Shown: one piece after another, positions 720 to 55,091 of the stretch
Layout: every line of letters starts with the position of its first letter
Numbering within the stretch: the stretch's first letter is position 1
DNA from: an uncultured Prevotellaceae bacterium
GTDB taxonomy: Bacteria > Bacteroidota > Bacteroidia > Bacteroidales > Bacteroidaceae
Length of the DNA: 64,000 nt
Reading direction: 5' to 3'
NCBI GenBank assembly: GCA_900316475.1
Contig: ONDA01000023.1
Location: forward strand, 15,016 to 79,015
The notes under the pieces: model-generated
Database searches by the model: none
Told to the model about the DNA's origin: nothing
Seen by the model: only the letters and a program-made list of their open reading frames with translations
Position numbers and translations under genes: made by a program

Positions 720-2189
720 TCAGCGACGGAGGAAGACATCGACCTTCCTGGCAGTCTCGATGCCGCTGGCCATGGCGCGCACGACGAGCGAGGCGCCGTT
801 CTGGGCGTCGCCGCAGACGAAGACGCTCTCGGGGTAGGCGGGGTGCTCGGGCTTGAGGAAGCCCATGGCCAGGAGGCACAGCTCGGCCTTGATGACGAAG
901 GGGTCGCCCTTGGGGACCATGACGGGGCGGGCGGGTTTCCCCGCTGGAGAAGCAGCGGGCACGGGGGTGGGTTTTCCCGCTGGAGAAGCAGCGGGCACGG
1001 GGGCCGGCTGCCACTCGACTTCCTGGACGCGGACGCCGGTCAGGTGGCCGTTCTCGCCAAGGAATTCGAGCGTATTGATGTTCCAGCGGCGGGTGCAGCC
1101 CTCCTCGTGGCTTGATGTGGTTTTGAGTGTGCGCGGGTAGTTTGGCCACGGGTTCTGCGGGTCGTCAGGACCCTCGACGGGGCGGGGCATGATTTCAATC
1201 TGGGTGACGGAGCAGGCACCCTGGCGATGAGCCGTGCCGATGCAGTCGGAGCCAGTGTCGCCGCCGCCAATGACGAGGACGTCCTTGCCCCGGGCGGTGA
1301 TGCGGTCGGCCTTCGGGAACTCCATGCCGGCGAGGACGCGGTTCTGCTGGGCGAGGAGTTCGAGTGCGAAGTGGACGCCTTTCAGGTCACGCCCAGGTGC
1401 TTTCAAGTCGCGGGCGGTGGGGGTGCCGGTGGCGAGGACGATAGCCCCCCACCCAGCCTCCCCCGAGGGGGAGGAGTAATTACATAGTTCGTTGAGAGCT
1501 GCCAGTAGAGTATCTACGCCCTCCCCTCGGGGAGGGATGGGGAGGGGGCTATTGTAGCGGAACTCAATGCCCTCCTGCTCCATCAGACTGATGCGGCGGT
1601 CGATGATGGCTTTGTTGAGCTTGAAGTTGGGGATGCCGTAGCGGAGGAGGCCGCCGGCGGCCTCGTTCTGCTCGAAGACGGTGACGGTATAGCCCATCTG
1701 GTTGAGGGCATCGGCAGCGGCAAGGCCGGCGGGACCGGCACCGATGACGGCAACCTTCTTGCCATTCCTGACTGGCACCCGTGGTTGGATATACCCCTCG
1801 CGGAAGGCGGCCTCGATGATGGCGCACTCGTCTTCGCGGTTGGTGGTCGGCTCGTGGTTGAAGCGGTTCAGCACGCAAGCTTTCTCGCACAGCGCGGGAC
1901 AGATGCGACCGGTGAACTCAGGGAAGGGATTAGTCGAGGCAAGCAGGCGGAAGGCCAGTTCCCAGTCGCCGCGATAGAGCGCGTCGTTCCACTCGGGCGC
2001 CTTGTTGCCCAGCGGACAGGCCCAGTGGCAGAAGGGTACGCCGCAGTCCATGCAGCGGCTTGCCTGCAGCTTGCGTTCGCGCGTGCTGAGCGTCTGCTCC
2101 ACCTCGCCGAAATCGTGGATGCGGTCGTGGACGGGGCGGTAGCCGGCCTCCTGACGGCCGATTTCTAAAAATGCTTTCGGGTTTCCCAT
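720..2189 (-). CDS. gltD: Glutamate synthase small subunit
   Basis: ASRCMDCGVPFCHWACP Fe-S motif, GAGPAG and IGGGDTG nucleotide-binding motifs; downstream of gltB. Confidence 0.97.
   Translation of the reverse strand: MGNPKAFLEIGRQEAGYRPVHDRIHDFGEVEQTLSTRERKLQASRCMDCGVPFCHWACPLGNKAPEWNDALYRGDWELAFRLLASTNPFPEFTGRICPALCEKACVLNRFNHEPTTNREDECAIIEAAFREGYIQPRVPVRNGKKVAVIGAGPAGLAAADALNQMGYTVTVFEQNEAAGGLLRYGIPNFKLNKAIIDRRISLMEQEGIEFRYNSPLPIPPRGEGVDTLLAALNELCNYSSPSGEAGWGAIVLATGTPTARDLKAPGRDLKGVHFALELLAQQNRVLAGMEFPKADRITARGKDVLVIGGGDTGSDCIGTAHRQGACSVTQIEIMPRPVEGPDDPQNPWPNYPRTLKTTSSHEEGCTRRWNINTLEFLGENGHLTGVRVQEVEWQPAPVPAASPAGKPTPVPAASPAGKPARPVMVPKGDPFVIKAELCLLAMGFLKPEHPAYPESVFVCGDAQNGASLVVRAMASGIETARKVDVFLRR
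933..1003. repeat. 36-bp tandem duplication of a CCCGCTG-n6-CAGCGGG hairpin, translated in frame in gltD (PVPAASPAGKP x2)
   Basis: Copies start at 933 and 969; peptide repeat visible in the ORF translation. Confidence 0.9.
1443..1550. repeat. Inverted pair of C/G-rich palindromic repeats in frame in gltD (1443-1476, 1518-1550)
   Basis: agcccccc..cctcccccgagggggagg and gccctcccctcggggaggg..gggggct; peptides SPLPIPPRGEG and SSPSGEAGWGA. Confidence 0.85.
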
Positions 2190-2270
2190 ATTTCTATTCT
2201 GTTTTTAATTTCTATTGTTGTTTAATCGCTTGTTTCTGCTCTTTCGGAGCGTTTCGCTTATGCTGCCACG

Positions 2271-5200
2271 TCAATAGTCGCGCTGGATATCCGCAATCTT
2301 CTCATGCAGCCTCGCCATTTTCTCCTCTTCGAGCACGCGCTTGTACTCGATGGGGATGACCTGGATGAAGTCCTCGATGTAGCGGTGCCAGTCGTCGAGC
2401 ATCCGTCCGGCCAGTGCGCTGCCCGTGTGCAGGTAATGCTGGCGGATGAGTTCGAGCAGTTCCTTGCGTGAAACACTATCCTCGACCAACGAAAGCTCCA
2501 CCATGTCCATATTGCAGAAATAGTCGAACGTGTGGTCGGGGTCATAGACATAAGCCACGCCGCCCGACATGCCTGCCGCGAAGTTGCGGCCGGTCTTGCC
2601 CAACACTACCACGCGACCGCCTGTCATGTATTCGCAGCAGTGGTCGCCCGCGCCCTCGATGACGGCGATGGCCCCGCTGTTGCGCACGCCGAAGCGCTCA
2701 CCGACGATGCCGTTGACGTACAGCTCGCCCGAGGTGGCGCCGTAGAGTCCGGTGTTGCCCGCTATGATATTCTCTTCGGCCTTGAATTCTTCACTGCGAC
2801 GGGCTGGCGGCAGGATGCTGATGCGTCCGCCGGAGAGTCCCTTGCCGAAGTAGTCGTTGGTCTCGCCCTCCAGCCGCAGGTCCAAGCCCTTCACAGCAAA
2901 GGCACCGAACGACTGACCGGCAGAACCTTTGAATTTGATTCTGATGGTGCCGTCGGGCAGTCCAGCCTCGCCATATTTCTTGGCAATGATACCCGAGAGC
3001 ATCGTGCCCACAGCACGGTCGGTATTCTTGATGGCATAGTCGAGCGTCACCTCTTCCTGGCTTTCGATGGCTTTTGCTGCCGCTTTGACGATTTCCTCGT
3101 CCTTTACGCCCGTCACCTTCGTATAGGCCCCACGGTCCCAGTAAAGCGCCTTATCTGTGTCGGGCTTATGGAGCAAGCGACCGAAGTCTATGGAGCGCCA
3201 TTTCTCCACCGCTGTTCCGTTTGTTGCGACGTTGTCGCAACTCTTCACCTCAATCAGTTCCGTATGACCGATAATCTCCTTCAGACTGTGTACGCCAATC
3301 TCGGCCAGATACTCGCGCACCTGCTGCGCAAGGAAGGTAAAGTAGTTCACTACATACTCGGCACGCCCCTCGAAATGCTTACGCAGCTCCGGGTTCTGCG
3401 TCGCCACACCCATCGGACAGGTATTCGTATTACACTTGCGCATCATCACGCAGCCCAGCACGATGAGCGGCAGCGTGCCAAACGAGAACTCGTCGGCGCC
3501 CAGCATTGCCATGATGATAACGTCCTTCGCCGTCTTCAGCTGTCCGTCGGTCTGCAGGCGCACCTGGTTCCGAAGACCATTGCGGACCAGCGTCTGCTGC
3601 GTCTCGGCCAGGCCAATCTCCGGCGAGATGCCCGCAAAACGCATCGACGACGCAGGCGATGCGCCCGTACCGCCCTCGGCACCACTGATGACGATGAGGT
3701 CAGCTTTCGCTTTCGCCACACCTGCGGCAATGGTTCCCACACCACTCTCAGCCACGAGTTTCACGCTCACAGCTGCTGTGGGGTTGATATTCTTCAGGTC
3801 GAAGATGAGCTGTGCCAGGTCCTCGATCGAATAGATGTCGTGATGAGGCGGCGGCGATATGAGTGAGATGCCGGGGATGGCATTTCGCGTCTTGGCGATG
3901 ATGTCGTTCACCTTGAAGCCGGGCAGCTGTCCGCCCTCGCCGGGCTTCGCTCCCTGTGCCACCTTAATCTGTATCTCCTCAGCATTCACCAGATACTCCG
4001 CCGTCACGCCGAATCGTCCGCTGGCAATCTGCTTCGTCTTGCTCGACAGCGACACGCCGTCCACCTCCGTGTGGTAGCGGGCATTGTCCTCGCCGCCTTC
4101 ACCGGTATTCGAGCGCGTGCCCAGCTTGTTCATCGCCAAAGCCAGTGCCTCGTGGGCCTCGATGCTCAGTGCGCCGAACGACATGGCGCCGGTCACGAAG
4201 TGCTTCACGATGCTCTCCACGGGTTCGACATCCTCGACAGACCTTTCCCCTTGCCCCTCCCTGTGAGGGAGGGGAGTAGATACCTTCTTAAAGGTGAGGA
4301 AGTCGCGCAGGAAGATAGGCGATTCCTTCTCGTCGACAAGCTTTGACCATTCCTTAAACTTCTCGTAATCGCCAGTACGGCAGGCTAACTGCAGCTTCGC
4401 AATCGTCTCCGGGTTCCACGCGTGCTTGATGCCGTCCCTGCGCCACGAGAACTGCCCGTGATTAGCAAGGTAACCACTCCCCTCCCTCACAGGGAGGGGT
4501 TGGGGGAGAGTCTGCAGGCGAATGGCATCTCTTGCAATCTCCTTCAGTCCGATGCCTCCGATGGTGCTCACCTCTGTGCCGAAGTAACGTCTCAGCAAGT
4601 CCTCGCTAAGCCCGATACTCTCGAAAATCTTCGCACCGCGATAGCTTCGGATGGTCGAGATGCCCATCTTCGACATGATCTTCTTCAGACCTTTATCCAC
4701 CGCCTTGATGTAGTTCCGTTCCGCCGTCGCATATTCCTCCTGAATCCTTCCGCGTTTCACCAAATCATCGAGTATGGCGAAGGTCATATATGGACACAGC
4801 GCCGAGGCTCCGTAGCCCAGCAGCAGCGCCGCATGCATCACCTCGCGAATCTCGCCGCTCTCCACAATGAGCGCCGTCTGCACACGCTTGCCCACGCTGA
4901 TGAGATAGTGATGAACGGCCGAGACAGCCAACAGCGACGGGATATTGAACCAGCAAGCCCCCCCTACGGCCCCCGAGGGGGCTTCTATAGTTTTGTCTGT
5001 GAGGATAATGTAGTTCACACCTTCGTCCACGCTGGCCTCTGCATCTTTGCAAAGCTTATCAAGTGCTGCACGCAAAGCTTCTTCGGCTTTGTCTAATGTA
5101 GCCCCCTCGGGGGCAGAAGGGGGGGCTACGACCATTGACAGTTTCTTGGTGTTGAAGCCCTTGTAGCGGATGTTACAAAGTATGTCCAGCTGTGTGTTCG

Positions 5201-7022
5201 TCAGCACCGGCTGCGGCAGGCGCACCATCTTGCAGTTAGAGGCATCCGGCGTCAGGATGTTCGTCCCCACCGCCCCGATGTACTCCGTCAGGCTCATGAC
5301 CAGCTCCTCGCGAATAGGGTCAATCGCTGGGTTCGTCACCTGCGCAAACTGCTGGCGGAAATAGTTGAACAGCACCTGCGGACGGTCGCTGACGACGGCA
5401 AGCGGTGTGTCGTTACCCATGGCCGCCACCGGCTCCTGCCCCGTCGTGGCCATCGGCACAATCGTCTTGTCAATATCCTCCTGTCCGAAGCCGAAGGTAA
5501 CCAGTTTACGCTGGAGGTCGCTCACAGCGTTCTCTACCTTGCGACCACTTTTCAGCTTCTCCAGCTGTACACGGTTCTCGCTGAGCCACTCACGATACGG
5601 ATGCGCCTTGGCCAGCTTCTCCTTAATTTCGCCGTCGTAGTATATTTTGCCTTCCTGCGTGTCGATGAGCAGAATCTTGCCTGGCTGCAAGCGTCCCTTC
5701 GAGACCACGTCGCCCGGCTCGAAGTCCATCACGCCGACCTCCGATGCCACGACCATCATGCCCTGCTTCGTAATCGTATAGCGCGAGGGGCGCAGACCGT
5801 TCCTGTCGAGCATACCGCCCGCATACCGTCCGTCGCTGAACAGCAGCGCCGCCGGTCCGTCCCATGGTTCCATCAGGATAGAGTGGTACTCATAGAACGC
5901 CTTCAAATCCTCCGAGATGGGGTGGGGCCCTCCGCCAGACACTCGGTAGTCTGGCGGCAATCCCTTGTCGTTGAACGACTCCGGCACCAGTATCGCCATC
6001 GCCTGCGGCAGCGACATGCCGCTCATCATCAGGAACTCAAACACGTTATCCAGGCTTGCACTATCGCTCATCCCCTCCTGCACAATCGGCGAAATCTCTC
6101 TGATGTCGCCCAATGCCTCGCTCGAAAGCACACTCTCGCGCGCCTTCATCCATCCGCGATTGCCGCGAATGGTGTTAATCTCGCCATTATGAGCTAACAA
6201 GCGGAAGGGCTGGGCCAGCGACCACGTGGGGAATGTGTTTGTGCTGAATCGTGAGTGGACCAGCGCCAGTCCGCTTGTCAGGTAGGGATTCGACAAATCC
6301 GGGAAATACCGGCGCAGCTGTCCGCTGGTCAGCATTCCCTTGTAGATGATATTCTTCGTGGAAAGCGAGCAGATGTAGAAAGCCTCAACCCCCAGCAGAC
6401 TCTCCCCCGGCCCCTCCCTGTGAGGGAGGGGAGCAGATACCATTTCCGCTATCCTCTTCTCAATCCTTTTCCTTATTATATATAAAGTGCGCTCAAATAC
6501 CGTCTCTTCTTCGCCAGGAGTGTAATCACTCCCCTCCCTCACAGGGAGGGGTCGGGGGTGGGTCTGCTGGTGGGTCTGCTGAGTCACAAATATCTGCTTA
6601 ATCTCTGGCTCTACCCTCCTTGCCGCCTCGCCCAGCACCTCCGGGCATGTCGGCACCGTGCGCAGATGCATCAGCTGCAGGCCCTCGCGCTCAATCTCCT
6701 CAATCATCACCGACAGGATTTCCTGCTGCGCCTTTTCCTCTTTCGGCAGGAACACCAGGCCCGTGCCGTACTTTCCCTTCTCGGGCACGGGGATGCCCTG
6801 CAACAGAATAAACTCATGGGGAATCTGTAGCATGATGCCTGCGCCGTCGCCCGTCTTGTCGCGGGTCTCGGCTCCTCGGTGCTCCATGTTCTCCAGCACC
6901 TTCAGCGCGTTGTCCACCAGTTCATGACTCTTGCCGCCGTGAATATTCACCACCATGCCTACGCCGCAGGCGTCGCGTTCATATTGTGACTGATAAAGTC
7001 CTTTTGTCTTACTATTTGTCAT
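2271..7022 (-). CDS. gltB: Glutamate synthase large subunit (start reassigned to ATG 7022)
   Basis: ERDACGVG N-terminal Ntn Cys, GAMSFG, IKVAQGAKPGEGGQLPG, CNTNTCPMG; -7 box at 7064-7071 argues against the upstream in-frame start. Confidence 0.98.
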   Translation of the reverse strand: MTNSKTKGLYQSQYERDACGVGMVVNIHGGKSHELVDNALKVLENMEHRGAETRDKTGDGAGIMLQIPHEFILLQGIPVPEKGKYGTGLVFLPKEEKAQQEILSVMIEEIEREGLQLMHLRTVPTCPEVLGEAARRVEPEIKQIFVTQQTHQQTHPRPLPVREGSDYTPGEEETVFERTLYIIRKRIEKRIAEMVSAPLPHREGPGESLLGVEAFYICSLSTKNIIYKGMLTSGQLRRYFPDLSNPYLTSGLALVHSRFSTNTFPTWSLAQPFRLLAHNGEINTIRGNRGWMKARESVLSSEALGDIREISPIVQEGMSDSASLDNVFEFLMMSGMSLPQAMAILVPESFNDKGLPPDYRVSGGGPHPISEDLKAFYEYHSILMEPWDGPAALLFSDGRYAGGMLDRNGLRPSRYTITKQGMMVVASEVGVMDFEPGDVVSKGRLQPGKILLIDTQEGKIYYDGEIKEKLAKAHPYREWLSENRVQLEKLKSGRKVENAVSDLQRKLVTFGFGQEDIDKTIVPMATTGQEPVAAMGNDTPLAVVSDRPQVLFNYFRQQFAQVTNPAIDPIREELVMSLTEYIGAVGTNILTPDASNCKMVRLPQPVLTNTQLDILCNIRYKGFNTKKLSMVVAPPSAPEGATLDKAEEALRAALDKLCKDAEASVDEGVNYIILTDKTIEAPSGAVGGACWFNIPSLLAVSAVHHYLISVGKRVQTALIVESGEIREVMHAALLLGYGASALCPYMTFAILDDLVKRGRIQEEYATAERNYIKAVDKGLKKIMSKMGISTIRSYRGAKIFESIGLSEDLLRRYFGTEVSTIGGIGLKEIARDAIRLQTLPQPLPVREGSGYLANHGQFSWRRDGIKHAWNPETIAKLQLACRTGDYEKFKEWSKLVDEKESPIFLRDFLTFKKVSTPLPHREGQGERSVEDVEPVESIVKHFVTGAMSFGALSIEAHEALALAMNKLGTRSNTGEGGEDNARYHTEVDGVSLSSKTKQIASGRFGVTAEYLVNAEEIQIKVAQGAKPGEGGQLPGFKVNDIIAKTRNAIPGISLISPPPHHDIYSIEDLAQLIFDLKNINPTAAVSVKLVAESGVGTIAAGVAKAKADLIVISGAEGGTGASPASSMRFAGISPEIGLAETQQTLVRNGLRNQVRLQTDGQLKTAKDVIIMAMLGADEFSFGTLPLIVLGCVMMRKCNTNTCPMGVATQNPELRKHFEGRAEYVVNYFTFLAQQVREYLAEIGVHSLKEIIGHTELIEVKSCDNVATNGTAVEKWRSIDFGRLLHKPDTDKALYWDRGAYTKVTGVKDEEIVKAAAKAIESQEEVTLDYAIKNTDRAVGTMLSGIIAKKYGEAGLPDGTIRIKFKGSAGQSFGAFAVKGLDLRLEGETNDYFGKGLSGGRISILPPARRSEEFKAEENIIAGNTGLYGATSGELYVNGIVGERFGVRNSGAIAVIEGAGDHCCEYMTGGRVVVLGKTGRNFAAGMSGGVAYVYDPDHTFDYFCNMDMVELSLVEDSVSRKELLELIRQHYLHTGSALAGRMLDDWHRYIEDFIQVIPIEYKRVLEEEKMARLHEKIADIQRDY
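4241..4514. repeat. Inverted pair of palindromic repeats in frame in gltB (4241-4284, 4471-4514)
   Basis: CCCCTCCC-TGTGA/TCACA-GGGAGGGG stems; peptides VSTPLPHREGQGER and QTLPQPLPVREGSGY. Confidence 0.9.
4955..5128. repeat. Inverted pair of palindromic repeats in frame in gltB (4955-4984, 5099-5128)
   Basis: agccccccctacggcccccgagggggct and agccccctcgggggcagaagggggggct; peptides APSGAVGGA and APPSAPEGAT. Confidence 0.85.
5932..5957. repeat. Perfect 9-bp-stem hairpin in frame in gltB
   Basis: ccgccagac-actcggta-gtctggcgg; peptide GLPPDYRVSGGGPH inside FNDK...PISEDLKAF. Confidence 0.7.
6397..6566. repeat. Inverted pair of palindromic repeats in frame in gltB (6397-6441, 6521-6566)
   Basis: Same CCCCTCCC..GGGAGGGG stem; peptides VSAPLPHREGPGESL and QTHPRPLPVREGSDYT. 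Confidence 0.9.
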
Positions 7023-7063
7023 ATTATCCTTACTTTTTCTTACGTTTTGTCTAATTTTCGATG

Positions 7064-7071
7064 CAAAGGTA
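7064..7071 (-). promoter_or_regulatory. Bacteroidetes sigma-A -7 box for gltB-gltD
   Basis: TACCTTTG on the minus strand matches TAnnTTTG, about 40 nt upstream of the ATG. Confidence 0.75.
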
Positions 7072-7133
7072 ATACTATATGTCTGATTTGCCAAAGCTCT
7101 GATTTCCTTTTTCACCTTCATTTGGCACCCAAC

Positions 7134-7220
7134 TTACATTTTGTAAAGTCCAAGCCCGCGACACGCCCATTTTGCGGTGTCATACGGTGTCTGCGACACG
7201 CCGTAGCTTACACTTTGTCA
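7134..7220. promoter_or_regulatory. Paired candidate operator boxes upstream of gltB (7134-7146, 7208-7220)
   Basis: TTACATTTTGTAA and TTACACTTTGTCA, 74 bp apart; the same layout recurs at three other promoters. Confidence 0.7.
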
Positions 7221-7359
7221 TTTTCAGGCGAATAGTAACGCGACGGAACGACAATTGTTTTTCCAAACTCCATTTTCTTTTATCATAAGCGGAACATTAT
7301 TTGGCGTTTCCTGATTTTTTTTGTTACTTTGCACGCCATAAAGGTGACAACACAAAAAA

Positions 7360-8262
7360 ATGAATACAACCATATTAACCATTACAGGAAGCGACGGCAC
7401 AGGCGACTCCGGTGTGCAGGCAGACATACGGCTCATCTGCGAACTGGGCGGCAAGGCGGCGTCTGCCATCACCTCCATCACAGTGCAGAACACGCTGGGC
7501 ATCCAGGAATTCCACGACCTGCCGGCAGCCGTCGTCTACCAGCAAGTGGAAGCCATCATCAACGACCTGCAACCGCAGGTTATCAAGATAGGACTGCTGA
7601 GACACACGGAAGTGGTAGGGATGCTGGCCGACGTATTGCGCAAATACAAGCCGCGACACATCATCTATGTCCCCGTCCTGAAGTCCACAAAGGGCGAACG
7701 GCTGGTGTCGCCAAGTGTCTACGAGGCCATCGAACGCCTTCTCCTGCCGCTGTGTACCATCGTTCTGGCGCCCTCCGACCTGCCCGTAGGCCCGCGCCGC
7801 CACGGTCAGGCCAACAAGCTGGCTTCCGCCTTAGCCTATTACCTGAGTCTCGGCGAGACAGAGGCCGACGCCATGCTTCACGCCCAGACCTACCTGAAGA
7901 CCCTGCCTGCCGACTATGCCGACGGGAACAGCAGGAGCGAGGAACTCTACAACCAGTTCCTGACCGCCGTAGAACGCAACTATAGCCACTATGCCGACGT
8001 GGCGTTTTACGCCGAACAGCTTAACGTCAGTGCCAAGTACTTAGGACAAGTGACGCGACGCATAGCCAACCGTTCGCCGAAAGCCATTATCGACGACCGT
8101 ATCATCACAGAAATCGTGGCATTGCTCACCTCCACCAACCGTCCGCTGAAGGACATCGCCCAGCGTCTCGGTTTCTCCTCGCAGGCTCATCTCTCGCGCT
8201 TCTTCAAGAAGCACAAGGGAGTATCACCAACAGAATACCAACACAACAACAAACAATCATAA
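7360..8262 (+). CDS. ThiD/PdxK-like kinase domain fused to an AraC-family HTH; probable regulator
   Basis: N-term [32 protein letters not shown] (ThiD-like); C-term [37 protein letters not shown] (AraC). Confidence 0.8.
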
Positions 8263-8266
8263 ACAC

Positions 8267-9139
8267 ATGAACGAAAGAACATTGCTGAACCGCCAGTTGG
8301 CTCAGATGCTGAAGGGCGGTGTTATCATGGACGTGACGACTCCCGAACAGGCCCGGATTGCCGAGGCTGCCGGTGCCTGTGCCGTCATGGCCCTCGAACG
8401 CATCCCTGCCGACATCCGTGCTGCAGGTGGTGTGAGTCGTATGAGTGACCCGAAGATGATTCGCGGCATTCAGGAGGCTGTCTCCATCCCCGTCATGGCC
8501 AAGTGCCGCATTGGTCACATTGCCGAGGCGCAGATCCTGCAGGCCATCGAGATTGACTACATCGACGAGAGCGAGGTACTCTCGCCCGCCGACAACATCT
8601 ATCATATCGACAAGACGAAGTTCGACGTGCCCTTTGTCTGTGGCGCCAAGAACCTGGGTGAGGCCTTGCGCCGTATTGCCGAAGGTGCCACGATGATCCG
8701 CACCAAGGGTGAGCCCGGTACGGGCGATGTTGTTCAGGCCGTGAGTCACATGCGTCTGATGCAGAGCGAGATTCGCCGACTGACGAGCATGAGCGACGAC
8801 GAGCTCTTCGAGGCCGCCAAACAACTGCAGGCGCCCTACGAACTGGTGAAGTTCGTACATGACGAAGGCAAACTCCCCGTGGTCAACTTTGCGGCTGGCG
8901 GTGTGGCTACGCCTGCCGATGCTGCCATGATGATGCAGCTCGGTGCCGAGGGCGTGTTTGTGGGCAGTGGCATCTTCAAGAGCGGCAACCCCGCCAAGCG
9001 TGCTGCCGCCATCGTTCAGGCTGTGACCAACTACCAGGATGCCAAACTCCTGGCCGAACTCTCGGAAGACCTTGGCGAGGCGATGGTAGGTATCAATGAG
9101 CACGAGATAGAGCTGTTAATGGCCGAACGAGGGAAATGA
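8267..9139 (+). CDS. pdxS: Pyridoxal 5'-phosphate synthase lyase subunit
   Basis: [42 protein letters not shown]. Confidence 0.97.
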
Positions 9140-9684
9140 GGATAGCAGTATTGGCCCTGCAAGGGGCGTTTGTTGAGCACGAGCAGATGTTGCAGAAGCT
9201 CGGCGTGGAGACGGTGGAGATACGTCAGATGCGCGACTGGCAGCAGCCAAAGGACGGGTTGGTATTGCCCGGCGGTGAGAGTACCGTGCAGATGCGCCTG
9301 CTGAAGGAGCTGGGACTCTTCGACCCTATCCGCGAGGCTATCCTCGGCGGGATGCCCGTCCTCGGCACTTGTGCCGGCATGATTCTCCTTTCCGAACGTC
9401 GCCTCGGCACGATGGCCATCGAGGTGCGCCGCAATGCCTACGGTCGTCAGTTGGGCAGCTTTCATACCGTTGGCAGCGTCGAGGGTATCGGCAATGATGT
9501 TCCCATGACCTTCATCCGTGCCCCCTATATCGAACGTGTGCTGAGCGAGAAGGTCGAAGTGCTTTCCACCGTCGATGGCCATATCGTCGCTGCCCGACAG
9601 GGTCATCAGCTCGCCACCGCCTTCCATCCGGAGCTGGACGGAGACCGGCGCGTACACCAGATGTTTGTCGAAATGGCCCGTTAG
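9136..9684 (+). CDS. pdxT: PLP synthase glutaminase subunit
   Basis: LALQGAF, PGGEST, GTCAG, FIRAP, FHPEL; ATGA overlap with pdxS. Confidence 0.96.
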
Positions 9685-9771
9685 TGACTATTTGTTACAG
9701 TCTGACCGCTTTTTGAGCCAAAAAGTAAGCAAAGTGTAAAGAAACGAATTTGTTTTCTTTACACTTTGTTA
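9685..9771. promoter_or_regulatory. Paired candidate operator boxes upstream of glnK-amtB (9685-9697, 9759-9771)
   Basis: TGACTATTTGTTA and TTACACTTTGTTA, 74 bp apart, ending 63 bp before the -7 box. Confidence 0.65.
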
Positions 9772-9833
9772 TTTATTTTAATATTTTGAAAACATATCGA
9801 CATTGGATGCTTGCAGTTTCTGACAAAATGTCG

Positions 9834-9841
9834 TACTTTTG
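9834..9841 (+). promoter_or_regulatory. -7 promoter box for glnK-amtB
   Basis: TACTTTTG matches TAnnTTTG. Confidence 0.7.
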
Positions 9842-9892
9842 CACCCGAAAGCTTTCAAGATGACATTATATTAATTAAAAGAGGTAAAAAGT

Positions 9893-10240
9893 ATGAAAAG
9901 GATTGAAGCAATTATCCGCAAGACCAAGTTCGAGGAGGTCAAGGAGGCACTGCTCGCGTCGGACATCGACTGGTTTGAATACCATAACGTTCACGGTATC
10001 GGCCAGAGCCGACAGGAACGTATCTACCGTGGCGTGCAGTACTCTACGGATGTGATAGAGCGTGTGGCGCTGACCATCGTCTGCCGCGACGCCTTGGTGG
10101 AACCGACGGTGAAAGTGATACTCGACATGGCACACACAGGCGAGATAGGCGACGGTCGCATCTTCGTGAGCGACATGATAGACACATGGAGCATCCGCAC
10201 AGGCGAGAATGGCGACACCGTACTGAGAGATAAGAAGTAA
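9893..10240 (+). CDS. glnK: P-II nitrogen regulatory protein
   Basis: MKRIEAIIR, YRGVQY T-loop, TGEIGDGRIFVS..IRTGE; directly upstream of amtB. Confidence 0.93.
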   Translation: MKRIEAIIRKTKFEEVKEALLASDIDWFEYHNVHGIGQSRQERIYRGVQYSTDVIERVALTIVCRDALVEPTVKVILDMAHTGEIGDGRIFVSDMIDTWSIRTGENGDTVLRDKK

Positions 10241-10246
10241 GGGGTG

Positions 10247-10356
10247 CTCCCCTGCCCCCTCCAAGGAGGGGAGAGTCAAATAACACAAACACAAAAATCA
10301 CAACCCCATACCTCCGTTCGGGTTCCCCCTCCTCGGGAGGGGGTAAGGGGAGGCTT
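10247..10356. repeat. Intergenic inverted pair of the same palindromic repeat family (10247-10277, 10321-10356)
   Basis: ctcccctgccccctccaaggagggg and ccccctcctcgggagggggtaaggggaggctt. Confidence 0.85.
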
Positions 10357-10362
10357 ATACTT

Positions 10363-11616
10363 ATGAACGAAATAGGATTATCACTCGATACCGTATGGAT
10401 GCTGCTGGCAGCGATGTTAGTTTTCTGGATGCAGCCTGGCTTTGCCCTGTGTGAGGCTGGTTTTACACGAAGTAAGAATACGGTCAACATTCTGATGAAG
10501 AACTTTGTCGACTTCATGTTCGGCTCGCTCTTGTTCTTCTTCCTCGGCTTCGGCTTCATGTTCGGCAGCGAAGGTGCCGGTTTCATCGGTGCTCCCAACT
10601 GGGGCGACCTCTCATTCTACAAGGGCGACCTGCCCGTAGAGGGTTTCTTGATTTTCGAGACGGTCTTCTGCGCCACCTCTGCCACCATCGTCAGCGGAGC
10701 CATGGCTGAGCGCACGAAGTTCTCGATGTACCTGATTTACAGTGCCGTCATCTCGTTGTTTATCTATCCCATTGAAGGTCATTGGACGTGGGGCGGCGGC
10801 TGGCTCTGCAACGATGCTGCCGACGGCTTTATGATGTCTACCTTCGGCGACGTGTTTCACGACTTTGCCGGTTCGGCTGTCGTTCACTCCGTAGGTGGTG
10901 TGCTGGCACTGATTGGCGCTTTGGCACTGGGTCCCCGTGTTGGCAAGTATGCCAAGGACGGCAAGAGTCGTGCTATTCCCGGCCACAACCTGGCCATGGC
11001 CGCCCTGGGCGTGTTCATCCTCTGGTTAGGATGGTTTGGCTTCAACCCCGGTTCTCAGTTGGCTGCCAGTGGCGAGGTCAACCGTGTGGCCATCTCTCAT
11101 GTGTTCCTGACCACCAACCTTGCTGCTGTGGCAGGCGGTGTGGCCACGATGTTCCTCACCTACATCAAGTACGGCAAGCCGTCGCTCTCACTCACCCTGA
11201 ACGGCGTGTTGGCAGGTCTTGTGGGCATTACCGCCGGTTGCGACCTCGTATCGCCCCTTGGTGCCGTCGTCATCGGTCTGGTCTGCGGAACCGTTCTGGT
11301 TTACGCCATCGAGTTTATCGACCACAAGCTCCACATCGACGACCCTGTAGGTGCCAGTAGCGTACACGGCGTCTGCGGTATCCTGGGCACCCTCATGACC
11401 GGTCTGCTGTCCACATCCAACGGTGCCTTCTATGGCGGCGGTTGGGGATTCTTCGGAGCCGAGTGCTTCGGTATCCTTGTCATCGACGCCTGGGCTGCTG
11501 TCTGCGGTGTGATACTGTTCTACGGCATCAAGCACATTCACGGCTTACGCGTAGACAAGCGTATCGAGGAGGAAGGTCTCGACATCTATGAGCACGGAGA
11601 GGCGTGCTATAACTAA
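10363..11616 (+). CDS. amtB: Ammonium transporter
   Basis: DTVWMLLAAMLVFWMQPGFA, DFAGSAVVH, GWFGFN, DDPVGASSVHG. Confidence 0.97.
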   Translation: MNEIGLSLDTVWMLLAAMLVFWMQPGFALCEAGFTRSKNTVNILMKNFVDFMFGSLLFFFLGFGFMFGSEGAGFIGAPNWGDLSFYKGDLPVEGFLIFETVFCATSATIVSGAMAERTKFSMYLIYSAVISLFIYPIEGHWTWGGGWLCNDAADGFMMSTFGDVFHDFAGSAVVHSVGGVLALIGALALGPRVGKYAKDGKSRAIPGHNLAMAALGVFILWLGWFGFNPGSQLAASGEVNRVAISHVFLTTNLAAVAGGVATMFLTYIKYGKPSLSLTLNGVLAGLVGITAGCDLVSPLGAVVIGLVCGTVLVYAIEFIDHKLHIDDPVGASSVHGVCGILGTLMTGLLSTSNGAFYGGGWGFFGAECFGILVIDAWAAVCGVILFYGIKHIHGLRVDKRIEEEGLDIYEHGEACYN

Positions 11617-11640
11617 TCATAAATAATAAGGTAAAAGGTT

Positions 11641-12348
11641 ATGAAAAAGATTGTATTATTGGCCATAGGTCTGGTTGCGCTCGCAACCACCTATGCACAG
11701 GAGACAGTAGAAACCACTATCAGTAGCGACGTGGTGAGCAGTTACATCTGGCGTGGCCAGGATTTGGGCAGTGCAGCCATACAGCCCACCTTGGGCGTAG
11801 GCTATAAGGGCCTTTCGTTGTCGGCCTGGGGCAGCTACGGCATCGCCGATCCCGCCGACGCCAAGGAGTTCGACCTGACGCTTGCCTACACCCTTGACGG
11901 TCTGAATATCGGCATCACCGACTACTGGTTCAACGCTGGCGGTCTCGACCCTGACGGCAGATACTTCAAGTATGACGCCCACGGCACCAACCACGTCTTC
12001 GAAGCGAACGTCGGCTACGATTTCGGCTTTGCCAGCGTGCAGTGGTACACCAACTTCACTGGTAACGACGGTATCAACAAGGATGGCAAGCGGGCCTACA
12101 GCAGTTACGCCGAGATAGCCGTTCCCTTTAAGCTTGCCACCGTCGACTGGACGGCCAGAGCCGGTGCCGTGCCCTATTGCACAACGTTTTACGGCACAAC
12201 AGGCTTCGCCGTAACCCATCTCTCGCTGCAAGCGACAAAAGACATCAAAGTGACGGACGCATTCTCGATACCCGTCTTCGGGCAGGTCATAGCCAATCCC
12301 TGTACCCAGAAAGCCTACCTGGTTCTCGGCCTTACGCTGCGGCCATGA
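11641..12348 (+). CDS. Outer-membrane beta-barrel protein (TorF-like putative porin)
   Basis: Signal peptide, SSYIWRGQD..AIQP, EFDLTLAY alternating strands, terminal amphipathic strand. Confidence 0.7.
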   Translation: MKKIVLLAIGLVALATTYAQETVETTISSDVVSSYIWRGQDLGSAAIQPTLGVGYKGLSLSAWGSYGIADPADAKEFDLTLAYTLDGLNIGITDYWFNAGGLDPDGRYFKYDAHGTNHVFEANVGYDFGFASVQWYTNFTGNDGINKDGKRAYSSYAEIAVPFKLATVDWTARAGAVPYCTTFYGTTGFAVTHLSLQATKDIKVTDAFSIPVFGQVIANPCTQKAYLVLGLTLRP

Positions 12349-12362
12349 TCTTATCCAGGTTT

Positions 12363-12401
12363 CCCTCTCTTCTGTCGTAACAGGCGGAAGAGGGGGCTTT
12401 C
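12363..12401 (+). terminator. Possible intrinsic terminator after the porin gene
   Basis: ctcttctgtc..ggcggaagag stem followed by a T-rich tail. Confidence 0.45.
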
Positions 12402-12446
12402 TTCTGTTCTGCATCTGGCAAGAGTGCCTCCGGCAAAGTCCTTGCC

Positions 12447-12533
12447 TTACAAAATGCAAGGGAAACGACCGTTTTCAAGGCAAAACGAAAGGTTGCGCCC
12501 ACCCTTGCGCCTATAGATTCTTACACTTTGACA
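12447..12533. promoter_or_regulatory. Paired candidate operator boxes upstream of pyrG-purF (12447-12459, 12521-12533)
   Basis: TTACAAAATGCAA and TTACACTTTGACA, 74 bp apart, ending 64 bp before the -7 box TAATTTTG (12597-12604). Confidence 0.7.
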
Positions 12534-12629
12534 ACGAAGCGCGTTTTTAACAATCAAAAACAGGAGGCTATGATTGGCTGTCAGCGGGATTATCCGTAAT
12601 TTTGCAGTCCATAGAATAGAAATCGTTTT

Positions 12630-14351
12630 ATGGAAACAAAGTACATCTTCGTCACGGGCGGCGTCGTTTCCTCGTTGGGAAAAGGCATCATCTCCGCCAG
12701 CATCGGCAAACTGCTGCAGGCACGTGGCTTCAAAATCACCATCAAGAAGTTCGACCCGTACATCAACATCGACCCGGGCACACTGAACCCCTACGAGCAC
12801 GGCGAATGCTACGTGACGGAGGACAGTTTTGAAACCGACCTCGACTTAGGGCACTACGAGCGCTTTACGGGTATACGTACCACACGCCACAACAGCATCA
12901 CCACAGGCCGCATCTATAAGGCAGTCATCGACCGCGAGCGCCACGGCGACTATCTGGGCAAGACCATCCAGGTGGTGCCGCACATCACGGACGAGATAAA
13001 AAAGAGGATATTGGACACCCCGGGGGCAGTAGGAGGAGCTTTGGGGACTTCATCTTTCGTCATTTGCGAAATCGGCGGCACCATCGGCGACATCGAGAGT
13101 GCGCCGTTCATGGAGGCTATCCGCCAGCTGCGCTGGGAACTGGGGCGCAATGCCGTGTGTGTACACCTAACCTACGTGCCCTATCTGAAAGCCGCCGACG
13201 AGTTAAAGACAAAGCCCACGCAACATTCGGTCAAGGAATTGCAGAGCATGGGCATCCAGCCTGACATCCTCGTACTACGCACGGAACGTCATCTGGACGA
13301 AAGCCTGCGCAGGAAAGTGGCGTCGTTCTGCAATGTCGACCTGGATTGTGTCGTACAGAGCGAGGACTTGCCGAGTATCTATGAGGTGCCGGTGAGTATG
13401 CACCAGCAGGGGCTTGACACGGCCATATTAAGAAAGGCGGGAGCCTCCCCAAGCCCCTCCAAAGGAGGGGATGTTGAGACACCTGATTTCGCGGCTTGGA
13501 CTGCCTGGCTTGCCTTCCTCGACAAGCAGCGACACGCTACCCGTGAGTTGCACATCGGACTGGTGGGTAAATACGACCTGCAGGATGCCTACAAGAGCAT
13601 CCGCGAGAGCCTGAGTCTGGCTGGCGTCTATAACGACGTGAAGACGAAGATTCATTTCGTCAACAGCGAGGCGTTGACGGCGGAAAACGTCGCTACACAA
13701 TTGGCGGGCATGGCGGGCATCGTCATCTGTCCTGGTTTCGGACAGCGGGGCATCGAGGGGAAAATCATCGCCGCCGAATACACACGCACACACGACATCC
13801 CCACCTTCGGCATCTGCTTAGGCATGCAGATGATGGTCATTGAGTTTGCACGGAACGTGTTAGGCTATCCGGATGCGACGAGCAGCGAGATGGTGACCTT
13901 CCCCAAAGCCTCCCCAAGCCCCTCCGAAGGAGGGGGTGTGGCTCCCCACTGTGTGATAGACATGATGGAAGAACAGAAGAGTATTACGCAGATGGGTGGC
14001 ACGATGCGGTTGGGGGCATACGACTGCCAATTAGTGGAAGGCAGCAAAGCGTATGAAGCATACCTGCAGTCGGAGCAATCTACCCCCCTCGCTCACAGAG
14101 AGGAGCCGGGGGAGAGTCTCTTTGTCAAGGAACGCCATCGCCATCGCTATGAGTTCAACAATCAATATAAGGAGGAATACGAGCAGGCCGGCATGAAGTG
14201 CGTAGGCATCAACCCGACCGCCAACCTCGTCGAGATTGTCGAGATACCCGACAAGCGTTGGTACATCGGCACACAGTTCCATCCTGAGTATTCGTCAACG
14301 GTGCTGCACCCGCACCCACTGTTTATGTCGTTCATAAAGGCCTGCATCTGA
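12630..14351 (+). CDS. pyrG: CTP synthase
   Basis: FVTGGVVSSLGKG, KFDPYINIDPGTLNPYEHGE, CLGMQ, RHRHRYE, QFHPE. Confidence 0.98.
   Translation: METKYIFVTGGVVSSLGKGIISASIGKLLQARGFKITIKKFDPYINIDPGTLNPYEHGECYVTEDSFETDLDLGHYERFTGIRTTRHNSITTGRIYKAVIDRERHGDYLGKTIQVVPHITDEIKKRILDTPGAVGGALGTSSFVICEIGGTIGDIESAPFMEAIRQLRWELGRNAVCVHLTYVPYLKAADELKTKPTQHSVKELQSMGIQPDILVLRTERHLDESLRRKVASFCNVDLDCVVQSEDLPSIYEVPVSMHQQGLDTAILRKAGASPSPSKGGDVETPDFAAWTAWLAFLDKQRHATRELHIGLVGKYDLQDAYKSIRESLSLAGVYNDVKTKIHFVNSEALTAENVATQLAGMAGIVICPGFGQRGIEGKIIAAEYTRTHDIPTFGICLGMQMMVIEFARNVLGYPDATSSEMVTFPKASPSPSEGGGVAPHCVIDMMEEQKSITQMGGTMRLGAYDCQLVEGSKAYEAYLQSEQSTPLAHREEPGESLFVKERHRHRYEFNNQYKEEYEQAGMKCVGINPTANLVEIVEIPDKRWYIGTQFHPEYSSTVLHPHPLFMSFIKACI
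13017..14119. repeat. Four palindromic repeat copies in frame in pyrG (13017-13040, 13441-13473, 13906-13936, 14077-14119)
   Basis: Peptides TPGAVGGA, ASPSPSKGGDV, ASPSPSEGGGV, STPLAHREEPGESL match the gltB and intergenic copies. Confidence 0.8.
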
Positions 14352-14352
14352 C

Positions 14353-16146
14353 ATGGAACAACTCAAGCATGAGTGTGGCGTGGCGATGATTCGCCTGCTG
14401 AAACCGCTGGACTACTACGGACAGAAGTACGGCACCAACCGCTACGGGCTGAACAAACTCTACCTGATGATGGAGAAACAACACAACCGCGGTCAGGAGG
14501 GAGCAGGCATCGCCTCGGTGAGCCTGGACAAAGAGCCTGGCCGGGAGTATATGTTCCGAGAGAAGGCCGAAGGTAAGGATGCCATCACCGAAATCTTCAG
14601 AAGGGTGGCCTCAACAATACCCTCATCATGTCATCAGGCACCCTCGCCTTCGGAGGGACTTGGCGAGGCGTGGAGCACTTGCCAACTCCTGATGGGGCAC
14701 CTGCGCTACTCAACGACGGGCAAGAGCGGACTGCAATACGTACATCCTTTCCTGCGCCGCAACAACTGGCGGGCGAAGAACCTCTGTCTGTGCGGCAACT
14801 TCAACATGACCAACATCGACGAGGTCTTCCGCTTCCTGACAGCGCAGGGACAGTCGCCGCGTATCTATGGCGACTCGTACATCACGCTGGAACTGATGGG
14901 GCACCGCCTGGACCGCGAGGTCGAAAGGCTCTACAACGAGGCGATGGGCAAAGGACTGGAGGGACTCGACATCACGCACTATATAGACGAGCATGTGGAG
15001 ATGGCCAATGTGCTACGCACCACGATGCAGCACTACGACGGCGGTTACGTCATGTGTGGACTGACGGGCTCGGGCGAGATGTTCTCTGTACGCGACCCCT
15101 GGGGTATCCGTCCGGCATTCTACTATCGCGACGACGAGATAATAGCCGTCGCCAGCGAGCGCCCTGTGCTGCAGACCACGTTCGACATCCAGGCTGAGGA
15201 TGTGCATGAGCTGATGCCTGGTCAGGCACTCATCGTTCATCAGAACGGCACGAGCCAGCTGGAACAGATAATGCCTGCACAGCGGTTCAGTGCCTGTTCC
15301 TTCGAGCGCATCTACTTCAGTCGCGGCTCCGACCGTGACATCTATCAGGAGCGCAAACGGCTGGGCGAACAACTGACGCCAGCCATCCTCAAGGCTATTG
15401 ACAACGATGTTGCCAACACCGTGTTTTCATATATCCCCAACACGGCCGAGGTGGCCTACTATGGCATGACCGACGGTTTCCGACGGCAGGGCTACAGCGT
15501 GCGCACGGAGAAGGTGGTGTGGAAAGACATCAAACTGCGCACCTTCATTGCCGACAACTCAGAGCGCAACGACCTGGCGGCTCATGTCTACGACATCAGC
15601 TACGGTTCGCTGCGACCCTACGAGGACAACCTCGTCATCATCGACGACTCCATCGTGCGCGGAACGACACTCAAGGAGAGCATCTTCAAGATTCTGGACC
15701 GGCTGCACCCCAAGAAGATTGTCATGGTCAGCTCGTCGCCCCAGATTCGCTACCCCGACTACTACGGCATCGACATGGCGCGCCTGGAGGAGTTCTGCGC
15801 CTTCCGCGCCACGATGGCACTGATTGAGGAGCGTGGTATGTGGCAACTGGTCAACGACACCTATCTGGCCTGCAAACATAACCTTCAAACAGAGAATCAT
15901 GTCCGTGCGCTCTACGAGCCTTTCACCGTCGAGGAAATCAACAGGAAGATTGTGGAGATGCTGCGCCCGAAGGGCATGAAGGCACCTGTCGAACTGGTGT
16001 TCCAGAGTATCGAGGGTCTCCACGAGGCGTGCCCTAACCACCCTGGCGACTGGTATTTTACCGGTCACTATCCTACGCCTGGCGGCACACGGCTCTGTAA
16101 CGCTGCCTTTGTGAACTACATTGACAACAAACAGAAGAAACGGTAA
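14353..16146 (+). CDS. purF: Amidophosphoribosyltransferase (class II glutamine amidotransferase plus PRTase)
   Basis: KHECG, QHNRGQEGAG, GHLRYST, VRDPWGIRP, IIDDSIVRGTT. Confidence 0.88.
   Translation: MEQLKHECGVAMIRLLKPLDYYGQKYGTNRYGLNKLYLMMEKQHNRGQEGAGIASVSLDKEPGREYMFREKAEGKDAITEIFRRVASTIPSSCHQAPSPSEGLGEAWSTCQLLMGHLRYSTTGKSGLQYVHPFLRRNNWRAKNLCLCGNFNMTNIDEVFRFLTAQGQSPRIYGDSYITLELMGHRLDREVERLYNEAMGKGLEGLDITHYIDEHVEMANVLRTTMQHYDGGYVMCGLTGSGEMFSVRDPWGIRPAFYYRDDEIIAVASERPVLQTTFDIQAEDVHELMPGQALIVHQNGTSQLEQIMPAQRFSACSFERIYFSRGSDRDIYQERKRLGEQLTPAILKAIDNDVANTVFSYIPNTAEVAYYGMTDGFRRQGYSVRTEKVVWKDIKLRTFIADNSERNDLAAHVYDISYGSLRPYEDNLVIIDDSIVRGTTLKESIFKILDRLHPKKIVMVSSSPQIRYPDYYGIDMARLEEFCAFRATMALIEERGMWQLVNDTYLACKHNLQTENHVRALYEPFTVEEINRKIVEMLRPKGMKAPVELVFQSIEGLHEACPNHPGDWYFTGHYPTPGGTRLCNAAFVNYIDNKQKKR
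14638..14669. repeat. Degenerate palindromic repeat copy in frame in purF
   Basis: ccctcgccttcggagggacttggcgaggc; peptide APSPSEGLGEA. Confidence 0.65.
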
Positions 16147-54963: not shown

Positions 54964-55091
54964 TTCTTGTCTGTTTATGTTATAACGGTTGCAAATATAA
55001 CACAATTTCCCGATATCTGCAACTTTTTCCTTACGAAACATTTCTATGTTTTGAAATTAATTCGTAACTTTGCCAGAAAAACAGAAAATCT

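Follow-up and report, generated by a model that had tools for sequence, protein, structure and literature searches.

Paired palindromic arms in core genes of a rumen Prevotella and their association with a DUF559 nuclease gene

A stretch of 64,000 nucleotides from an uncultured Prevotellaceae bacterium (GenBank assembly GCA_900316475.1, contig ONDA01000023.1, positions 15,016 to 79,015 of the forward strand), here called the window and numbered from its own first letter, carries short GC-rich repeats that stand in inverted pairs within and between core genes. A single repeat copy of 35–60 nt is termed an arm. The pairs are probably formed by the terminal arms of small palindromic selfish elements that belong to a single family in rumen Prevotella, an explanation to which we give a probability of roughly 0.65. 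Paired arms have a near-uniform polarity throughout the genome, they combine two unlike forms in most classifiable pairs, and the same forms flank a gene for a DUF559 nuclease; where gltB arms enclose host coding sequence, that sequence shares the ancestry of the arms, and one such block has been swapped between otherwise near-identical strains. An earlier note on this DNA, made from the letters alone, had reported six pairs in which the left copy has its C-tract first and the right copy its G-tract last; a profile search recovered all six, each with this arrangement.

From outside to inside, an arm consists of a C-tract (AGACCCACCCCC, CAGACTCTCCCCC or AGCCCCCCC), 2–5 nt, a GC hairpin (CCCCTCCC-loop-GGGAGGGG, for example CCCCTCCC-TGTG-AGGGAGGGG, or GCCCCCGAGGGGGC) and a conserved tail, which reads GTAATTAC or GTAGATAC and in its longer forms AGTAATTAC or AGTAGATAC. 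The right copy of each window pair is the reverse complement of a left-type arm, and the arms of pairs are 76–91% complementary. For a genome-wide census, a profile made from the window copies was searched against the whole assembly (3.29 Mb, 83 contigs, 52.9% GC), which gltB similarity places among rumen Prevotella/Xylanibacter; 179 non-overlapping arms were found, and a shuffled genome gave 0 matches. Neighbouring arms no more than 400 nt apart (n = 58) were oriented '+-', with the C-tract outermost on both sides, in 57 cases and '-+' in one, with none on the same strand (binomial p ~2e-33). Neighbour orientation, which the earlier note had proposed to examine across the genome, is thus non-random, and with this model 80 gltB loci from further rumen Prevotella gave 33 '+-' neighbours against 3 others. 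The outer tips of arms are often tandemly duplicated in units of 9–18 nt, as in the QQTH-QQTH of GltB, which suggests repeated processing or slippage at the outer junction. At many arms the type-A outer tip (CAGACCCAC...) is duplicated two to three times (for example at window 6573–6584, C67:8979, C71:64024 and C81:16822, the C numbers denoting contigs of the assembly), and within coding DNA the duplicated unit is always a multiple of three.

The arms fall into several major types, among which type A is the most numerous in the genome. Of 57 pairs, 47 united arms of one major type (A, B, C or D), where shuffling led to an expectation of 25 and a maximum of 35 in 2000 shuffles. Within a major type the partners are systematically unlike. 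Type-B pairs combined a B1 arm (..CTACGGCCCCCGAGGGGGCTTCATTAC) with a B2 arm (..TTCKKCCCCCGAGGGGGMYACAA..) in 11/11 cases, and the tails of type-A pairs were alpha (GTRATTAC-TCTCAAGAC) on one arm and beta (GTAGATAC-TTCTGC) on the other in 11/14, such that 22 of the 25 classifiable pairs join unlike forms (p 8e-5), compact and extended pairs (defined below) alike. The arms do not avoid coding DNA, unlike repetitive extragenic palindromes (REPs) or most MITEs (miniature transposable elements with inverted repeats): stop-free frames of at least 150 codons hold 159 of the 179 arms (~89%), as compared with 88% of random 50-nt windows, and the arm-bearing frames of gltB, gltD, pyrG, dnaG, dapF and cbiD are uninterrupted. 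Depending on orientation and frame, the arm-encoded peptides include PLPVREGSDY, STPLPHREGPGESL, APPSAPEGA and ASPSPSKGGD, and an example of an arm-spanning peptide in GltB is PLPHREGPGESL. One orientation of the arms makes use of all three reading frames and the other of two, so that selection is not for any one arm peptide.

The nuclease is associated with the arm elements. The only DUF559 gene of the genome lies outside the window on the minus strand of contig C71 (54653–55024; 124 aa, PF04480 at 119.9 bits), within a complete element (C71:54604–55072) that is composed of a B1 arm, the DUF559 gene and a B2 arm. The B1 arm (54604–54657, +) directly adjoins the nuclease gene and the B2 arm (~55031–55072, -) lies opposite, in the same forms and polarity as the window pair 4952/5088. 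At this locus the upstream host frame stops at a TAA within the B2 tail, and the stop codon of the nuclease lies within the B1 tail. Nuclease homologues in other genomes were found between '+ ... -' arms at 10 of 12 loci, and the remaining two have arm-like GC-rich sequence on the side or sides missed by the model; at locus L126 the two hairpins that flank the nuclease are mutually complementary. In relatives, the arm–nuclease–arm unit occurs in frame within a DegT-family aminotransferase, as an internal insertion, and also joined on to IspG at the C-terminus and to Gmk (guanylate kinase) at the N-terminus; at these fusion loci (L120, L123/L124/L128 and L127, all from other Prevotellaceae) arm-encoded linkers join the nuclease to host proteins. 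The gmk locus of the present genome was considered as a decayed nuclease copy and rejected, as it is an empty site. Across 151 genomes of the family, the nuclease was present in 8 of the 9 arm-rich genomes (at least 14 type-A hairpins) versus 21 of 142 others (Fisher p 6e-6), and three sampled genomes of the same genus with at most one type-A hairpin match (G001, G036 and G113) have no nuclease. Similarity was found between the protein and PDB 3HRL (9e-21), and also PDB 3R3P (4.9e-4), which is the catalytic domain of the homing endonuclease I-Bth0305I.

More than half of the pairs are compact, with spacers of <30 nt and arms that nearly abut when their extended tails are counted, so that the palindrome measures 90–130 bp and the apparent 'spacer' is mostly extended arm tail. 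In DnaG, a whole 33-aa unit is inserted where orthologues have 0–2 residues, and this insertion led to rejection, for compact pairs, of a variable-stagger model in which all spacers are native. No direct repeats indicative of target-site duplication were present at the outer junctions of compact pairs. At least 20 further pairs are extended and have 37–282 nt of unique host DNA between their tails; these include five of the six window pairs, all but the compact gltD pair. Spacers of at least 24 nt are unique in the genome and have no conserved internal sequence, and comparison with nearby flanks, from which they might have been copied as filler, gave no matches beyond controls. Homologous host coding sequence is enclosed in the three gltB cassettes, pyrG, dapF (C60:14161–14413) and cbiD (C49:2431–2646), and another ~12 pairs straddle an intergenic region, their first arm beginning at a stop codon or immediately beyond it and their second arm placed at the next gene's start or slightly within that gene. 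As origins of the arm–host–arm arrangement, unequal recombination, duplicative inversion, circle integration and centre-break repair were considered; all require intermediates, none of which was observed.

The six pairs lie in a nitrogen-assimilation cluster that fills the first 15 kb of the window and contains gltD, gltB, pdx genes, glnB, amtB and pyrG. In gltD, which encodes the glutamate synthase small subunit (720–2189, -), the left arm (1436–1487, +) has the tail GTAATTAC and is read in frame on the minus-strand gene as ...CNYSSPSGEAGWGA, and the right arm (1508–1552, -) has the tail GTAGATAC and is translated as NSPLPIPPRGEGVDT; ~24 nt of ambiguous origin separate the tails. The gene for the large subunit, gltB (2271–7121, -), carries three pairs, termed cassettes 1–3, and GltB is 1616 aa long here versus ~1490 aa in arm-less relatives. 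Cassette 1 is composed of a type-A beta left arm (6390–6444, +; MVSAPLPHREGPGESL), an enclosed host segment (6445–6517, -; residues ~203–224, EEETVFERTLYIIRKRIEKRIAE) and a type-A alpha right arm (6518–6584, profile match 6518–6572, -; QQTHQQTHPRPLPVREGSDY), the outer tip of which, CAGCAGACCCAC, stands in a 12-nt tandem duplication. In cassette 2, a B1 left arm (4952–4994, +; KTIEAPSGAVGGA), a form also found beside the DUF559 gene of C71, is followed by the enclosed segment (4995–5087, -; residues ~676–709, EALRAALDKLCKDAEASVDEGVNYIILTD) and a B2 right arm (5088–5131, -; VAPPSAPEGATLD). The two arms of cassette 3 are both of type A (4234–4287, +, KKVSTPLPHREGQGERS; 4466–4520, -, QTLPQPLPVREGSGY), and the segment between them (4288–4465, -; residues ~885–945, ...HAWNPETIAKLQLACRTGDYEKFKEW...) is homologous to arm-less alleles, yet forms a distinct allele class. 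The pair between glnB (P-II; 9893–10240) and amtB (10363–11616, ATG at 10363) is one of the ~12 stop–intergenic–start pairs: its left arm (10240–10284, +) begins directly past the glnB stop codon, its right arm (10322–10363, -) ends at the amtB start codon, and the enclosed spacer (10285–10321) is unique and non-coding. The earlier statement that the pairs bracket conserved enzyme sequence therefore holds for the three gltB pairs and pyrG, but not for the glnB–amtB pair, and in gltD the ~24 nt are ambiguous.

In pyrG (CTP synthase; 12630–14351, +), which carries four arms, the pair is made up of a type-C left arm (13898–13945, +; ASPSPSEGGGV), an enclosed host segment (13946–14072, +; APHCVIDMMEEQKSITQMGGTMRLGAYDC...) and a type-A beta right arm (14073–14126, -; STPLAHREEPGESL). 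This pair is composite. The arm at 13898 is what is left of a compact type-C pair, of which relatives such as P0131 have the complete form, and it stands beside an older type-A beta arm: the 14073 arm is present in 11 of 12 aligned Prevotella PyrG sequences (it is missing in P0129), and its original alpha partner survives in P0137. The two other arms of the gene lack a full partner in the window, namely a solo type-C arm (13433–13486, +; ASPSPSKGGDVE), the partner of which is kept in P0127, P0131 and P0137, and a degenerate type-B half arm (13004–13044, -; PGAVGGA), the site of which is occupied by a full compact B pair in the PyrG of P0125 (98% identical). Solo arms thus arise through partner deletion, as comparison of the P0125 and window PyrG sequences indicates.

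The ancestry of the enclosed segments was examined in a set of 81 gltB sequences, in which many species have arms at a shared set of three or four sites. The two arms of a cassette occur together: for cassette 1, 13 sequences had both arms, 3 the left only, 2 the right only and 63 neither (p 1e-10), and for cassette 2 the corresponding numbers were 9, 3, 3 and 66 (p 2e-7). On trees of the enclosed segments, arm presence amounts to 5 and 3 changes, versus ~16 and 14 with shuffled labels, whereas on the tree of the rest of gltB it amounts to 14 and 11 changes, not far from the 16.6 and 14.1 obtained when labels are shuffled. The enclosed segments share their ancestry with the arms and not with the flanks, a difference in ancestry that the earlier note had suggested looking for. 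Nucleotide differentiation between armed and arm-less alleles is 0.10–0.20 inside the cassettes and is back to background (0.01–0.03) ~6–12 codons beyond the arms.

A direct case of exchange was found among close strains (including L114, L115 and L116) recovered from metagenomes. The gltB of L114 differs from that of the window by 0–3 mismatches per 60 nt over most of its length, with two short tracts of 8–11, and by 16–19 mismatches per 60 nt plus indels in a block at positions 1990–2185 of the window gene, which is exactly cassette 2. In this block, L114 has type-A arms in place of the type-B arms and an enclosed segment in which ~28% of nucleotides differ, nearly all synonymously; the boundaries of the swap lie 6–12 nt beyond the arm tips. 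The tree incongruence, the confined differentiation and this swap support the earlier suggestion that arms may be replaced as cassettes together with the coding segment between them, and strains and species exchange the arms and their enclosed segment as a single linkage block. For this exchange, homologous recombination in the flanks would be sufficient, and an activity specific to the arms may contribute too. Recombination inside the block is prevented by the heterology of its arms and by the shortness and divergence of the piece between them, and for that reason the block moves as a cassette by recombination in the flanks. Other imported stretches have arms in their interior rather than at their limits and are recombination tracts of the ordinary sort (L115, residues 1269–1430; L116, residues 40–460), and L003 is a recombinant within cassette 3 that has kept the right arm alone. 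One orthologous site can carry type A, B, D or E arms in different genomes, and nesting of arms also occurs, as in the N-side arm of L052. The gltB of rumen Prevotella is strongly mosaic also outside the arms: in 30-codon blocks, identity between the window gene and that of its closest species-level relative, L018, ranges over ~0.57–0.96, and over 0.68–0.96 away from the cassettes.

The favoured explanation accounts for these observations by an element composed of two slightly different arms (alpha/beta or B1/B2), inverted with their tails inward; the polarity of the pairs would be uniform because the ends of the element are arranged in this way. Complete copies would have a gene for a ~124-aa DUF559 (Vsr-like, PD-(D/E)XK) endonuclease between the arms, most copies would have almost nothing, which leaves a compact palindrome, and at least 20 pairs in this genome would have come to enclose unique host DNA. 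Most of the arm reading frames are open and would be translated as Pro/Gly/Ser-rich linkers, and this is probably why variable loops of essential enzymes, as well as gene boundaries, have kept their arms. The DUF559 enzyme would nick or cut DNA, and recombinational repair, in the manner of homing, would then spread the arms. As a working guess, a nicking enzyme may cut opposite strands at two nearby points, with the 3' end at each nick copying one arm from an existing element; fixed polarity, unlike arm forms and variable spacing would all follow from such a scheme.

Several points weigh against this explanation. The action of the nuclease on the arms and the movement of the element are predicted from sequence, and the sharp boundaries of the cassettes could result from old polymorphism combined with frequent homologous recombination, with no activity specific to the arms. 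One arm-rich genome (G132, 88% complete) is without the nuclease, several nuclease-bearing genomes match the strict hairpin pattern rarely, and the sole nuclease copy in the present genome is associated with type-B arms, whereas type-A arms are the most numerous. The census of 179 arms used a profile built from the same genome and admitted weak matches (E up to 10). Among extended pairs taken alone, unlike forms are combined in 7/9, which is not significantly more than 50%, and no transitional state leading to arm-flanked host DNA was seen.

A further step would be that the arms and the DUF559 nuclease constitute a homing system able to carry host coding sequence as cargo, which we regard as possible but rather unlikely. 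Here the nuclease would nick or cut arm-less alleles, or two half-sites that flank a segment, and repair would copy the arm–host–arm block in. If this were true, internal segments of essential genes, gltB and pyrG among them, would spread as driven cassettes across Prevotella species, and the installation of palindrome halves at two nicks on opposite strands would be a new mode of insertion.

Two other explanations were each judged improbable. In the first, partner arms would pair at long range in mRNA and so control decay, processing or translation, with the pairs kept by selection. Such pairing is thermodynamically plausible, as arm–arm stems dominate the predicted folds (z -6.9 for RNA 4230–4524; z -5.3 for 1432–1558, folded as DNA); furthermore, at orthologous gltB sites the two arms of one genome are more alike than arms across genomes (0/5000 and 98/5000 permutations), and ~12 pairs enclose a stop–intergenic–start region. 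However, type-A partners are no better matched than non-partners (p 0.10), and arms lie across reading frames and in both orientations, in proportion to coding DNA. A 45-bp duplex in a translated mRNA would be expected either to be unwound by ribosomes or to be cleaved by RNase III, destroying essential transcripts, and the arms match no Rfam family, giving only sub-threshold look-alikes of miRNA precursors. Pairing in RNA is not needed for the pattern, since the same arm geometry flanks the nuclease gene, and the preponderance of compact palindromes is expected of elements that act at the DNA level.

In the second, the extended pairs would be the outer arms of two independent compact insertions that have lost their inner arms, with the cassette pattern reflecting old linkage. 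The outer arms of adjacent elements would be '+-' automatically, solo arms do arise by deletion, and the 7/9 figure for unlike forms in extended pairs is compatible with such an origin. The expected '+- ... +-' intermediates would contain a '-+' junction, which was found in 1/58 neighbours here and 0/36 in relatives, and random loss of arms would also yield '++', '--' and '-+' pairs, which are essentially absent; the tight co-occurrence of left and right arms across the 81 gltB sequences also speaks against it.

Local inverted copying, which the earlier note had put forward and in which one arm inserts and template switching or fold-back synthesis makes an inverted copy nearby, is very improbable. 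The inverted arrangement of paired arms, their common major type and the slippage suggested by the 9–18 nt duplications at outer tips would fit such a process, but it was rejected because a local copy would match the form of its template, whereas partners are systematically of unlike forms; in addition, the same two forms flank the nuclease gene, and neither microhomology nor a copied flank was found. We give hardly any credence to intragenic invertons, with arms as recombinase sites and an enclosed segment that flips to switch or recode the gene: segments of 40–280 bp between intragenic inverted repeats do fit the inverton geometry of Bacteroidales (bioRxiv 10.1101/2023.03.11.532203), but 8 of the 9 coding pairs, all of which lie in housekeeping genes, would acquire stop codons on flipping, spacers of <30 nt, too short for inversion, occur in over half of the pairs, and the enclosed segments have their native orientation in all 81 gltB sequences. 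Equally hard to credit is a system of REP doublets forming hairpins (REPINs) mobilised by a REP-associated tyrosine transposase (RAYT; a Y1 HUH transposase), for although the paired arms amount to GC-rich hairpins in inverted doublets, a GTAG/GTAA motif stands beside the stem and the genome has one RAYT-like Y1_Tnp gene with a C-terminal extension (289 aa; C33:27991–28857, locus L081), no arms lie near that gene, its homologues are absent from 8/8 other arm-rich genomes and present in 7 other genomes without arms, and REPINs are extragenic with conserved spacers, whereas the arms are 89% intragenic with unique spacers.

Further arms lie elsewhere in the window. The amidotransferase-like gene that follows pyrG (14353–16146) has a degenerate type-C arm (14633–14674, -), a solo type-D arm (19207–19262, +) lies in frame in a 588-codon open frame, and another solo arm (26016–26062, -) lies in frame in a 708-codon open frame. 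Two in-frame expansions of other kinds were observed in the glutamate synthase genes. In gltB (-), positions 5925–5963 hold a 39-nt palindromic insertion, GGATTGCCGCCAGACTACCGAGTGTCTGGCGGAGGGCCC, with a 9-bp stem (CCGCCAGAC/GTCTGGCGG) and the peptide GLPPDYRVSGGGP; it is missing in five strains of 93–99% identity and in 80 relatives, is unique in the genome and, with flanks that are otherwise near-identical, is very recent. It is not an arm, though it has the CAGAC/GTCTG tip motif in common with arms. In gltD, the region 900–1000 (residues ~397–420) contains a tandem direct repeat of 36 nt (929–964 and 965–1000, 94% identical), which encodes PAPVPAASPAGK twice in place of the 4-residue PNPD/PNPE motif of all 73 relatives and is unlike the arms in kind.

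The finding has consequences for work on this genus. Within genes for core metabolic enzymes, short internal stretches differ in ancestry from the remainder of the gene and are exchanged by near-identical strains, which affects Prevotella phylogenetics and strain typing as well as estimates of recombination, whilst the extra Pro/Gly loops and embedded nuclease domains affect protein annotation. Arms could also mark natural, well-tolerated sites for linker insertion, and if the nuclease installs or drives the cassettes, this would be a new route by which mobile DNA reshapes proteins. The literature that was searched contains no account of such repeats from Prevotella or Bacteroidota and none of a palindromic element that bears DUF559, and a 2024 review of MITEs does not mention Prevotella or Bacteroidota.

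The closest analogue is provided by the Rickettsia palindromic elements (RPE), which are in-frame palindromes in protein-coding genes (Ogata et al. 2000, 2002, as summarised in PMC10969869). On the description given in that summary, RPE and the arms are both short palindromic repeats, present in many copies and several families, that lie in frame in unrelated and often essential genes and are translated as extra peptide loops (PMC10969869). The arms differ from the RPE so summarised in that they belong to another phylum, are much more GC-rich, each have a hairpin of their own, have an associated nuclease gene and can be separated by host DNA. The likeness drawn here is one of description, and the rumen Prevotella elements are analogues of RPE rather than members of that group. 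To our knowledge, in-frame selfish DNA in essential genes is textbook matter only for Rickettsia, and we know of no mobilising enzyme there; in the present case, the link between a family of this kind, from a rumen genus that is abundant, and one particular small nuclease opens the mechanism to experiment. With MITEs and foldback elements the family has in common terminal inverted repeats, small size and many non-autonomous copies beside few that encode a protein, but it lacks target-site duplications and a conserved internal sequence, does not avoid coding DNA, and has a parent that carries a DUF559 nuclease and no known transposase. In REPINs, too, the unit is a doublet of hairpin repeats in inverted orientation, and a short conserved motif lies beside the stem; REPINs are, however, extragenic with conserved spacers and linked to RAYT, whereas here the RAYT-like gene does not co-occur with the arms. 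In the pdif modules of Acinetobacter plasmids, and in recombinase-mediated cassette exchange, a unique segment between inverted recognition sites is an exchangeable module; pdif modules carry whole accessory genes and use XerC/D, whereas the module here is an internal piece of an essential gene and its exchange can be explained by homologous recombination. Finally, Vsr-like putative homing endonucleases include free-standing inserts in protein-coding genes (Dassa et al. 2009, PMC2677866), and the C71 element resembles these Vsr-like/EDxHD enzymes in that a small gene for a Vsr-fold nuclease lies inside or against host genes (PMC2677866). Patchy presence at orthologous sites, a distribution off the host tree and co-transfer of adjacent host sequence, all typical of homing endonucleases, were found for the arms and cassettes. 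In contrast to the Vsr-like/EDxHD cases, there is no intron or intein and the host gene is read through rather than split, and the nuclease, with an activity that is predicted here, is bracketed by translatable hairpin inverted repeats that are present at ~180 per genome without it. The family thus combines in-frame selfish DNA of the kind known as RPE with a gene like that of a homing endonuclease, and the cassette behaviour of its enclosed host segments is unusual.

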